This document shows, piece by piece, positions 12,990-41,660 of a stretch of DNA of 64,000 bases. The DNA is taken from the NCBI RefSeq assembly GCF_003334355.1, contig NZ_QOWP01000002.1; one strand, written 5' to 3'. Numbering within the stretch: position 1 is the first letter of the stretch; every line of letters starts with the position of its first letter. Under the pieces are notes generated by a model. The model worked only from the letters and a program-made list of their open reading frames with translations, did no database searches and was not told the origin of the DNA. The position numbers were made by a program, and so were the translations under genes. This DNA is from Escherichia coli (GTDB lineage: Bacteria; Pseudomonadota; Gammaproteobacteria; Enterobacterales; Enterobacteriaceae).

Positions 12990-14454
<1,465 letters not shown>

Positions 14455-14549
14455 GCTATCATCATTAACTTTATTTATTACCGTCATTCATTTCTGAATG
14501 TCTGTTTACCCCTATTTCAACCGGATGCCTCGCATCCGGTTTTTTTTTA
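14455..14549 (+). ncRNA. micF: MicF antisense sRNA
   Basis: Sequence GCTATCATCATTAACTTTATTTATTACCGTCATTCATTTCTGAATGTCTGTTTACCCCTATTTCAACCGGATGCCTCGCATCCGG plus T9 terminator matches micF; divergent from ompC. Confidence 0.9.
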
Positions 14550-18200: not shown

Positions 18201-18397
<197 letters not shown>

Positions 18398-18400
<3 letters not shown>

Positions 18401-21413: not shown

Positions 21414-23240
21414 ATGCATTATATGAAGTGGATTTATCCACGCCGCTTACGCAATCAAATGATCCTGATGGCAATCCTGATGGTCATTGTCCCAACGCTT
21501 ACTATTGGTTATATCGTAGAAACGGAAGGACGTTCAGCAGTCTTATCTGAAAAAGAGAAAAAACTTTCTGCCGTGGTCAACCTGCTTAATCAGGCACTAG
21601 GCGATCGCTATGATCTCTACATCGACTTACCACGTGAGGAGCGTATCCGCGCATTAAATGTAGAACTTGCCCCCATTACCGAAAATATCACTCACGCCTT
21701 CCCTGGCATCGGTGCTGGTTATTACAACAAAATGCTGGATGCGATAATCACCTACGCGCCTTCAGCGCTATATCAGAATAATGTCGGCGTTACCATTGCC
21801 GCAGATCACCCTGGTCGCGAAGTCATGCGTACAAATACCCCTTTGGTTTATTCAGGCAGGCAGGTGCGCGGCGATATTTTGAATTCAATGCTCCCCATTG
21901 AGCGTAATGGTGAAATCCTCGGCTATATCTGGGCCAATGAATTAACCGAAGATATTCGCCGCCAGGCCTGGAAAATGGATGTGAGGATTATCATTGTGCT
22001 CACCGCCGGTTTGCTGATAAGCCTGCTATTGATTGTCCTTTTCTCCCGTCGCCTGAGCGCCAATATTGATATCATCACCGATGGCCTCTCGACTCTGGCA
22101 CAAAATATTCCCACTCGATTACCACAATTGCCCGGTGAAATGGGGCAAATCAGTCAGAGTGTTAATAACCTCGCCCAGGCACTGCGTGAAACGCGGACAC
22201 TTAACGATCTGATTATTGAAAACGCTGCCGATGGCGTCATTGCCATTGACCGCCAGGGTGATGTAACCACCATGAACCCAGCAGCAGAAGTTATCACTGG
22301 CTATCAACGCCATGAACTGGTAGGGCAGCCTTACTCCATGTTGTTCGACAATACTCAGTTCTACAGTCCAGTACTGGATACGCTGGAACATGGCACCGAA
22401 CATGTGGCGCTGGAGATCAGTTTTCCAGGTCGTGACCGCACCATTGAACTCAGTGTCACTACCAGTCGTATTCATAACACGCACGGTGAAATGATAGGTG
22501 CTTTGGTGATTTTCTCTGATTTAACTGCCCGCAAAGAAACCCAGCGCCGCATGGCGCAAGCAGAACGCCTCGCCACACTGGGTGAGCTGATGGCTGGCGT
22601 CGCGCATGAAGTACGTAATCCGTTAACGGCTATTCGTGGTTATGTACAGATCTTGCGCCAACAAACCAGCGACCTAATACATCAGGAATATCTGTCCGTA
22701 GTACTCAAAGAAATCGATTCAATTAACAAAGTTATTCAGCAATTGCTCGAATTTTCACGTCCACGCCACAGTCAATGGCAACAAGTCAGCCTCAATGCAT
22801 TGGTTGAAGAAACTCTGGTACTGGTACAAACCGCCGGCGTACAAGCGCGGGTCGACTTCATAAGCGAACTGGATAATGAATTAAACCCGATTAACGCCGA
22901 TCGTGAACTGCTCAAACAGGTACTACTGAATATCCTGATCAATGCCGTCCAGGCTATCAGCGCACGAGGGAAAATTCGCATTCAAACCTGGCAATACAGC
23001 GACTCACAACAGGCCATTTCGATAGAGGACAACGGCTGTGGCATTGATCTCTCGCTGCAAAAAAAGATCTTCGATCCCTTTTTCACCACCAAAGCCTCAG
23101 GAACCGGGCTTGGTCTGGCGTTAAGTCAACGCATCATTAATGCCCATCAGGGTGATATTCGCGTCGCCAGTTTGCCGGGCTACGGCGCAACCTTCACGCT
23201 TATTTTACCGATCAACCCGCAGGGAAATCAGACTGTATGA
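21414..23240 (+). CDS. atoS: Sensor histidine kinase AtoS
   Basis: 608-aa protein MHYMKWIYPRRLRNQ... from an internal ATG of the tracked ORF; PAS and HisKA (AHEVRNPL) motifs. Confidence 0.92.
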   Translation: MHYMKWIYPRRLRNQMILMAILMVIVPTLTIGYIVETEGRSAVLSEKEKKLSAVVNLLNQALGDRYDLYIDLPREERIRALNVELAPITENITHAFPGIGAGYYNKMLDAIITYAPSALYQNNVGVTIAADHPGREVMRTNTPLVYSGRQVRGDILNSMLPIERNGEILGYIWANELTEDIRRQAWKMDVRIIIVLTAGLLISLLLIVLFSRRLSANIDIITDGLSTLAQNIPTRLPQLPGEMGQISQSVNNLAQALRETRTLNDLIIENAADGVIAIDRQGDVTTMNPAAEVITGYQRHELVGQPYSMLFDNTQFYSPVLDTLEHGTEHVALEISFPGRDRTIELSVTTSRIHNTHGEMIGALVIFSDLTARKETQRRMAQAERLATLGELMAGVAHEVRNPLTAIRGYVQILRQQTSDLIHQEYLSVVLKEIDSINKVIQQLLEFSRPRHSQWQQVSLNALVEETLVLVQTAGVQARVDFISELDNELNPINADRELLKQVLLNILINAVQAISARGKIRIQTWQYSDSQQAISIEDNGCGIDLSLQKKIFDPFFTTKASGTGLGLALSQRIINAHQGDIRVASLPGYGATFTLILPINPQGNQTV

Positions 23241-31168: not shown

Positions 31169-38015
<6,847 letters not shown>

Positions 38016-38125: not shown

Positions 38126-38150
38126 CAAGGGAGATAGCTCCCTTTTGGCA
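38126..38150 (-). terminator. Candidate rho-independent terminator after gyrA
   Basis: GGGAGatagCTCCC hairpin about 20 nt downstream of the gyrA stop; on the minus strand it is followed by the T-rich TTGTTTG. Confidence 0.5.
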
Positions 38151-38163
38151 TGAAGAAGTAAAA

Positions 38164-40791
38164 TTATTCTTCTTCTGGCTCGTCGTCAACGTCCACTTCC
38201 GGAGCGATTTCATCGTCCCCTTCCGCGGCACTGCCGTCGATGGTATCCAGATCTTCCTCGTCAACCGGTTCAGCAACACGTTGCAGACCCACTACGTTTT
38301 CATCTTCCGCAGTACGGATGAGGATCACGCCCTGGGTGTTACGGCCCACGATGCTGATTTCCGAAACGCGAGTACGTACCAGCGTACCGGCATCGGTGAT
38401 CATCATGATCTGGTCGCAGTCATCTACCTGTACCGCGCCAACAACTAAACCGTTACGTTCGGTAACCTTGATGGAGATAACCCCTTTCGTCGCACGCGAC
38501 TTGGTTGGGTATTCCGCCACTGCGGTACGTTTACCGTAACCGTTTTGCGTTGCGGTGAGGATTGCGCCATCGCCACGAGGCACGATCAGAGAGACGACTT
38601 TATCGCCTTCACCTAAGCGAATACCGCGAACACCGGTGGTGTTGCAGCCCATCGCACGGACAGAAGACTCTTTAAAGCGCACCACTTTACCTTCAGCGGA
38701 GAACAGCATTACTTCGTCTTCGCCGCTGGTCAGGTCAACGCCGATCAGCTCATCGCCGTCAACCAGTTTGATCGCCACTTTACCGGCGGTACGCAGACGG
38801 TTGAACTCGGTGAGGACAGTTTTCTTCACGGTACCGTTAGCGGTCGCCATGAAGACTTTCACGCCTTCTTCAAACTCGGTCACTGGCAGGATCGCAGTGA
38901 TACGTTCGTCCTGCTCCAGCGGCAGCAGGTTGACGATCGGACGACCGCGCGCGCCACGAGTGGCTTCCGGCAACTGATAAACTTTCATCGAATAGACGCG
39001 ACCACGGCTGGAGAAGCACAGAATATGGTCGTGAGTGTTCGCCACCAGCAGTCGGTCGATAAAGTCTTCTTCTTTAATACGTGCGGCAGATTTACCTTTC
39101 CCGCCACGACGCTGCGCTTCGTATTCAGAAAGCGGCTGATACTTAACGTAGCCCTGGTGAGAGAGCGTCACTACCACATCTTCCTGAGTGATCAGATCTT
39201 CCAGGTTGATGTCTGCGCTGTTGGCGGTGATTTCAGTACGACGTTTGTCACCGAACTGTTCACGAACCAGCTCCAGTTCTTCACGGATCACTTCCATCAA
39301 ACGATCGGCGCTACCAAGAATACGCAACAGTTCCGCGATCTGATCCAGCAGCTCTTTGTATTCGTCGAGCAGTTTTTCGTGCTCAAGGCCGGTCAGTTTC
39401 TGCAAACGCAGATCCAGAATCGCCTGAGCTTGCTGTTCGGTCAGGTAGTACAGACCATCACGCACGCCGAACTCTGGCTCCAGCCATTCCGGACGCGCAG
39501 CATCGTCGCCAGCACGTTCGAGCATCGCGGCAACGTTGCCCAGCTGCCACGGATTAGCAACCAGCGCAGTTTTCGCTTCTGCAGGCGTCGGCGCATGACG
39601 GATCAGTTCGATGATCGGGTCGATGTTCGCCAGCGCCACGGCTAATGCTTCAAGGATATGAGCACGATCGCGAGCTTTACGCAGTTCGAAAATAGTACGA
39701 CGGGTCACCACTTCACGGCGGTGACGAACAAACGCCGCGATGATGTCTTTCAGGTTCATGATCTTCGGCTGACCATGGTGCAATGCCACCATGTTGATAC
39801 CGAAAGAAACCTGCAACTGGGTCTGGGAGTAGAGGTTGTTGAGCACAACTTCACCGACCGCATCGCGTTTCACTTCAATCACGATGCGCATACCGTCTTT
39901 GTCAGACTCGTCACGCAGCGCGCTGATGCCTTCCACGCGTTTTTCTTTTACCAGTTCCGCAATCTTCTCGATCAGGCGCGCTTTGTTTACCTGATACGGA
40001 ATTTCGTGGACGATAATGGTTTCACGACCGGTTTTGGCGTCAACTTCCACTTCTGCGCGAGCGCGGATATACACCTTGCCGCGACCGGTACGGTAAGCTT
40101 CTTCAATACCGCGACGACCGTTAATGATTGCCGCCGTCGGGAAGTCCGGCCCCGGGATGTGTTCCATCAGCCCTTCAATGCTGATGTCTTCATCATCGAT
40201 ATACGCCAGACAACCGTTGATGACTTCCGTCAGGTTGTGCGGCGGGATGTTGGTTGCCATACCTACGGCGATACCGGAAGAACCGTTCACCAGCAGGTTA
40301 GGAATTTTGGTTGGCATGACGTCGGGAATTTTTTCCGTGCCGTCATAGTTATCAACGAAATCGACCGTCTCTTTTTCGAGATCGGCCATCAGTTCATGGG
40401 CAATTTTCGCCAGACGGATTTCCGTATAACGCATTGCCGCCGCAGAGTCGCCGTCGATGGAACCGAAGTTACCCTGACCGTCTACCAGCATGTAACGCAG
40501 CGAGAATGGCTGCGCCATACGGACGATCGTGTCATAAACCGCCGAGTCACCATGGGGATGGTATTTACCGATTACGTCACCAACGACACGGGCAGATTTT
40601 TTATAGGCTTTGTTCCAGTCATTGCCTAGTACGTTCATGGCGTAAAGTACGCGACGGTGTACCGGCTTCAGGCCATCTCGGACATCTGGCAGCGCACGGC
40701 CAACAATGACCGACATCGCATAATCCAGATAGGAGCTCTTCAGCTCTTCCTCAATGTTGACCGGTGTAATTTCTCTCGCAAGGTCGCTCAT
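38164..40791 (-). CDS. gyrA: DNA gyrase subunit A
   Basis: 875-aa ORF; active-site region and QRDR ([11 protein letters not shown]) present; acidic C-terminal tail. Confidence 0.97.
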
Positions 40792-40937
40792 CTAACCGCT
40801 ATCCCTCTACTGTATCCCGGATTCAAAGGTCGCAAATTATAACACAGCCGCGCAGTTTGAGGTAAACCTATACGCTTTATTCACATCCAATGCCTGATAT
40901 ACTCGTTTGTCTTGCCAATTACGGAGTAGAAGTGCCA

Positions 40938-41660
40938 ATGAATGCCGAAAAATCGCCGGAAAACCATAACGTAGACCACGAAGAGATCGCTAAATTTGAA
41001 GCCGTCGCCTCCCGCTGGTGGGATCTTGAAGGTGAGTTCAAACCGTTGCACCGCATTAACCCGCTGCGTCTGGGCTATATTGCCGAGCGTGCTGGCGGTT
41101 TATTTGGCAAAAAGGTGCTCGATGTCGGTTGTGGCGGCGGCATTCTGGCCGAGAGTATGGCGCGCGAAGGCGCGACGGTGACCGGTCTGGATATGGGCTT
41201 TGAGCCATTGCAGGTGGCAAAACTGCACGCGCTGGAAAGCGGCATTCAGGTGGATTATGTGCAGGAAACCGTGGAAGAGCACGCGGCAAAACATGCCGGG
41301 CAGTATGATGTGGTGACCTGCATGGAGATGCTGGAGCACGTCCCCGATCCGCAGTCAGTGGTCAGAGCCTGTGCGCAACTGGTGAAACCAGGCGGCGATG
41401 TCTTTTTCTCGACACTTAACCGCAACGGCAAGTCATGGCTGATGGCGGTGGTTGGTGCGGAATATATTTTGCGCATGGTGCCCAAAGGCACGCATGATGT
41501 GAAGAAGTTTATTAAACCGGCAGAATTGCTGGGCTGGGTGGATCAGACCAGTTTAAAAGAGCGGCATATCACTGGGCTGCATTACAACCCGATCACTAAT
41601 ACTTTTAAACTCGGCCCCGGCGTGGATGTGAACTATATGCTGCACACGCAGAATAAGTGA
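40938..41660 (+). CDS. ubiG: Ubiquinone biosynthesis O-methyltransferase UbiG
   Basis: 240-aa protein [16 protein letters not shown]... from an internal ATG; SAM-binding motif [11 protein letters not shown]. Confidence 0.93.

Follow-up and report, generated by a model that had tools for sequence, protein, structure and literature searches.

Does the gyrA gene of this Escherichia coli strain carry a target-site substitution of the kind that confers quinolone resistance, and does anything else in the gene or next to it depart from a susceptible reference? We addressed this within a 64-kb stretch of DNA (hereafter, the window), which contains the complete gene. The site in question comprises codons 83–87 of chromosomal E. 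coli gyrA in the ancestral, quinolone-susceptible form, a reading to which we assign a probability of about 0.97. The allele is the familiar wild-type one, in a gene that has been studied thoroughly. The elements on which the argument depends are as follows.

38164–40791, minus strand: gyrA coding sequence (DNA gyrase subunit A), 875 amino acids and a stop codon, ATG start, from the list of open reading frames and its translation.
40474–40593, minus strand: quinolone resistance-determining region (QRDR), codons 67–106 by the conventional definition; amino acids identical to those of K-12.
40543–40545, minus strand: codon 83, TCG (Ser), wild type, the same codon as in K-12.
40531–40533, minus strand: codon 87, GAC (Asp), wild type, the same codon as in K-12.
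40426–40428, minus strand: codon 122, TAT (Tyr122), read from the sequence in the context AMRYTE; this tyrosine is the catalytic residue of the GyrA DNA breakage-reunion site.
39094–39114, minus strand: GyrA box QRRGGKG, residues 560–566, read from the sequence in the first blade of the C-terminal beta-pinwheel.

The identity of the gene has to be settled before its codons can be interpreted. ParC (topoisomerase IV subunit A) is a paralogue whose N-terminal breakage-reunion domain is homologous to that of GyrA, and its QRDR motif, HPHGDSACYEA, is near-identical, with S80 and E84 as the equivalent Ser/acidic pair. On family-model scores, the window protein is GyrA and not ParC. It scores 1310 bits over residues 8–840 with the GyrA equivalog model TIGR01063 (cut-off 877) and 1259 with NF004043 (cut-off 902), whereas the ParC models all remain below their cut-offs (TIGR01062, 580 vs. 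629; TIGR01061, 694 vs. 813). The GyrA box, which is required for supercoiling and is missing in ParC, separates the two proteins; the window protein differs from ParC in having both this box and six pinwheel blades. In the Pfam annotation, the breakage-reunion domain of type IIA topoisomerases (PF00521) covers residues 32–507 (E = 8e-163), and six PF03989 repeats between residues 538 and 839 correspond to the six-bladed C-terminal beta-pinwheel. As the QRDR motif is situated within a full-length reading frame that scores 1310 bits with TIGR01063, a chance occurrence of the motif is not at issue.

The genomic setting is that of the K-12 locus, with the gene order yfaA-gyrA-ubiG-yfaL, and every one of the 5,426 genomes searched has a gyrA match of at least 95% identity. 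At the nucleotide level, the reading frame is 100% identical to the annotated gyrA of MLI023K1, MLI023K2, PSS-12, PCP06021, and others; the gene is nucleotide-identical to that of six independent complete E. coli genomes. The RefSeq non-redundant GyrA annotated in MLI023K1 and PSS-12 is WP_001281242.1. Chain A of PDB entry 6RKS (E. coli GyrA) aligns from end to end (residues 1–875 to 1–875, 1919 bits), and this full-length match, together with the identity to K-12 GyrA, suggests that the window GyrA assembles with GyrB into an A2B2 enzyme that introduces negative supercoils. The mechanical list of open reading frames also contains two long putative frames antisense to gyrA, both on the plus strand, at 39025–39645 (206 aa) and 39658–40629 (323 aa).

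The minus strand from position 40560 downwards reads cat ccc cat ggt gac tcg gcg gtt tat gac acg, i.e., GyrA residues H78 P79 H80 G81 D82 S83 A84 V85 Y86 D87 T88. The sequence-only reading had placed Ser83, encoded by TCG, at about 40543–40545 and Asp87, encoded by GAC, at about 40531–40533; counting codons from the ATG at 40791, both positions are exact, and the 11-residue QRDR peptide that it gave (residues 78–88) is reproduced letter for letter in the minus-strand translation. Its further claim, that the two common substitutions are absent, is borne out by comparison with gyrA of K-12 MG1655, in which Ser83 and Asp87 are the same. None of the target-site resistance substitutions at Ser83 (L, W, A, or V) or Asp87 (N, Y, G, or H) is present in the window gyrA. 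Resistant alleles, e.g., those of pandemic multidrug-resistant lineages, have TTG at codon 83 and, in the double mutant, AAC at codon 87, in contrast to TCG and GAC here.

The codon-level alignment to a reference gyrA that had been proposed as a check extends this result to the whole protein. The K-12 MG1655 GyrA (b2231, NP_416734.1) is an 875-aa protein identical to that of the window at 875/875 residues, and the 11 nucleotide differences between the genes, at codons 85, 91, 100, 111, 156, 198, 468, 498, 505, 535, and 540, are all synonymous. Three of them are situated within the QRDR, namely, codon 85 (GTT in the window vs. GTC in K-12), codon 91 (CGT vs. CGC), and codon 100 (TAC vs. TAT). 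The flanks are likewise conserved. The 146-nt intergenic region between gyrA and the divergent ubiG, upstream of gyrA and including the promoter, is identical in the window and K-12, and so is the 148-nt yfaA-gyrA region downstream. Two elements were identified in these flanks.

40836–40844, minus strand: extended -10 element TGtTATAAT in the gyrA-ubiG intergenic region, read directly from the sequence and assigned to the gyrA promoter on the basis of that of K-12.
38127–38144, minus strand: putative terminator-like hairpin 20 nt 3' of the gyrA stop codon, with a 7-pair stem (4 G-C pairs) and a weak T tail.

The gyrA promoter was not flagged in the consensus promoter scan because its -35 element is weak; within gyrA itself, the scan yielded a single promoter-like match, fewer than shuffled sequences predict. 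Compared residue by residue and across both intergenic regions, the gyrase A enzyme and its local regulatory DNA do not differ from the susceptible K-12 reference. The claim of the sequence-only reading that gyrA gives no evidence of fluoroquinolone selection is thus supported both by the wild-type codons and by the whole-protein identity to K-12; as judged from its codons, the gene records no history of such selection.

To place this allele among known ones, we searched 5,426 complete E. coli genomes with 30-mers of codons 80–89, using megablast with an exact 28-nt word, which makes each search in effect a test for one exact allele. The window 30-mer (wild type at 83 and 87, GTT at codon 85) was found in 2,014/5,426 genomes (37%), always in gyrA, and the K-12 30-mer (GTC at codon 85) in another 639. 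Together they give 2,653 wild-type genomes (48.9%), a lower bound, as the 586 genomes with other 30-mers (10.8%) may hold further synonymous wild-type variants. The double mutant S83L + D87N accounts for 1,702 genomes (31.4%; 1,371 with GTT and 331 with GTC at codon 85), and S83L alone for 485 (8.9%; 413 and 72, respectively); since the collection is enriched in clinical and resistant isolates, none of these shares is a population prevalence. The resistant alleles are found in the same gene, at the same locus, and on the same codon-85 synonymous backgrounds as the window gyrA. Wild type at codons 83 and 87 is the commonest state among complete genomes, and its presence here is unsurprising.

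At codon 85 (40537–40539, minus strand), GTT is the majority allele, present in 3,798 of the 4,840 typed genomes, whereas the K-12 codon GTC is in the minority (1,042/4,840). Hence, a mismatch to K-12 in a sequenced QRDR is ordinary polymorphism. For the synonymous variation at codons 85 and 91 of the QRDR, a literature search gave nothing of use. The S83L + D87N 30-mer also occurs in a gyrA copy on one collection record typed as a plasmid, and gyrA is matched twice in a few genomes, giving 5,432 places across the 5,426. Duplication, an assembly artefact, or wrong assignment of a replicon could account for such plasmid-typed or doubled copies.

The window as a whole is colinear with positions 2,298,433–2,362,823 of K-12 at approximately 99% identity and spans the genes from napH to rhmR (yfaX). 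Relative to K-12, no inserted resistance gene or mobile element was detected within its 64 kb, and searches with 25-kb segments retrieved no identical match to it among the collection genomes. Outside one REP array, approximately 17 SNPs over the 64 kb distinguish the window from the closest relative found, PSS-12 (human faeces, Ecuador), which also has one extra 113-bp repeat unit in that array and an IS5 element in its atoS gene. This IS5 (6495–7475 of the PSS-12 locus) corresponds to window positions of approximately 23121–23125, where atoS of the window is uninterrupted. A mosaic origin of the window, considered because the best match of the left 25 kb was only 99.5%, was rejected, as direct alignment demonstrated that PSS-12 is close across the whole window. 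The low ranking on the left side is probably an artefact of the PSS-12 alignment being split by the atoS insertion and the difference in repeat copy number.

The biochemical side of the argument is taken from published work. The Mg2+ ion that the quinolone keto-acid chelates is anchored in E. coli gyrase by Ser83 and Asp87, through water molecules; cleavage induced by ciprofloxacin is strongly lowered by S83L or D87N alone and abolished in the double mutant (PMC9917921). In the enzyme encoded here, GyrA and GyrB would assemble as A2B2, Tyr122 would cut the DNA, and negative supercoils would be introduced via the C-terminal beta-pinwheel and the GyrA box. A fluoroquinolone would trap the cleavage complex, with its C3/C4 keto-acid chelating Mg2+ and the water ligands of the ion expected to form hydrogen bonds to Ser83 and Asp87, both of which are present. 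Since both anchors are intact and the rest of GyrA equals that of K-12, the gyrase is expected to be fully drug-sensitive; we infer a susceptible phenotype for the enzyme from its sequence.

The wild-type allele is strong evidence against resistance mediated by the target. Among clinical E. coli, S83L is nearly always the mutation of the first step (PMC6695352); with GyrA fully wild type, target-mediated resistance of a high level is therefore very unlikely, which is of use in genotype-based resistance prediction. On the other hand, plasmid-mediated determinants are possible without any chromosomal mutation (PMC6695352), and wild-type gyrA therefore leaves room for low-level non-target mechanisms. 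A strain of this type could combine wild-type gyrA with reduced fluoroquinolone susceptibility owing to determinants outside the window, a situation well documented in other strains, the candidates being plasmid-borne qnr, aac(6')-Ib-cr, qepA, and oqxAB and changes in efflux or permeability, such as mutations in marR, acrR, or soxR or porin loss. The window amounts to no more than about 1.4% of an E. coli genome of typical size and includes no plasmid sequence, and parC, parE, gyrB, marR/acrR/soxR, and any plasmids all lie beyond its ends. What can be seen nevertheless speaks against such a mechanism: the colinearity with K-12 is not broken by any inserted gene, and two permeability-related loci are intact in the window.

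12990–14120, minus strand: ompC, intact, 376 aa vs. 367 aa in K-12.
14454–14547, plus strand: micF small RNA, intact (Rfam RF00033, 116.8 bits).

Moreover, PSS-12 has wild-type ParC (S80, AGC; E84, GAA) and a ParE unchanged at positions 355, 416, 445, 458, 460, 475, and 529, both serving as a proxy only for the strain of the window. On balance, we consider non-target resistance unlikely in this strain. It does not contradict the present result, because the latter concerns gyrA only, and if the strain did turn out non-susceptible despite its wild-type GyrA, the interest would be epidemiological rather than mechanistic.

Two further explanations would affect the gyrA call itself. The wild-type call could be a consensus that masks a minority resistant subpopulation, or the result of a reversion from TTG to TCG that left no trace. 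We regard either as very improbable, given that TCG and GAC are the ancestral codons, common to K-12 and at least 2,653 complete genomes, and that nucleotide identity of the whole gene in six complete genomes is what would be expected of an undisturbed lineage allele. A resistance-conferring change beyond codons 83 and 87 (e.g., at 51, 67, 81, 82, 84, 106, or 196) might also have been overlooked in a reading limited to 11 residues. This suggestion, to which we attach a practically negligible probability, is refuted by the complete identity to K-12, within which each of these positions was checked; no amino-acid change relative to K-12 was observed at GyrA positions 51, 67, 81, 82, 84, 106, 119, 122, or 196. 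The ancestral susceptible form thus remains the preferred reading of the window gyrA. It alters nothing in the knowledge of gyrase or of quinolone resistance. Among complete E. coli genomes in RefSeq, about one-half are in the same state.

Several other loci of the window differ from their K-12 counterparts. Within the window, mismatches to K-12 are densest in the kilobase containing ompC, at 47 per kb. This gene has many small in-frame indels clustered at 13168–13183, 13413–13446, and 13578–13590; the signal peptide and the N-terminus are identical to those of K-12. The indel clusters are taken to be surface-loop regions, consistent with typical ompC allelic diversity. In micF, one base differs from K-12, in the terminator stem (GCATTCGG to GCATCCGG), which we read as a probable replacement of a G-U pair by G-C. 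The inaA gene, a member of the mar/sox/rob regulon, is present with one substitution, N166K.

The yfaS gene (alpha-2-macroglobulin family; 31169–35683, minus strand) is intact in the window, whereas the K-12 copy has TGA at codon 1368 and is for that reason annotated as a pseudogene. In the annotated frame of the pseudogene, this codon (31672–31670) is TGG (Trp) in the window, and an intact 1504-aa protein is annotated in both MLI023K1 and PSS-12. Next to gyrA, ubiG (40938–41660, plus strand) has five nucleotide differences from K-12 and a single amino-acid change (V8E). Its start is at 40890 in the list of open reading frames (256 aa) but at 40938 (240 aa) according to the annotation of K-12 and the relatives.

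The eco-mqo gap (5958–6407, plus strand) contains a tandem array of approximately 113-bp REP-containing units with three Rfam naRNA4 matches, two units fewer than in K-12 and one fewer than in PSS-12. Further naRNA4/REP matches are located at 18208–18398 (the rcsB/rcsC gap) and 48578–48648 (the nrdA/nrdB gap). Finally, the glpC-rpnE-ypaA segment (approximately 58086–59120) is locally more diverged from K-12, with 34 mismatches per kb. Near 59063, in the region of the ypaA pseudogene, 12 bp of the K-12 sequence are deleted, and rpnE encodes 300 aa in the window vs. 299 aa in K-12.
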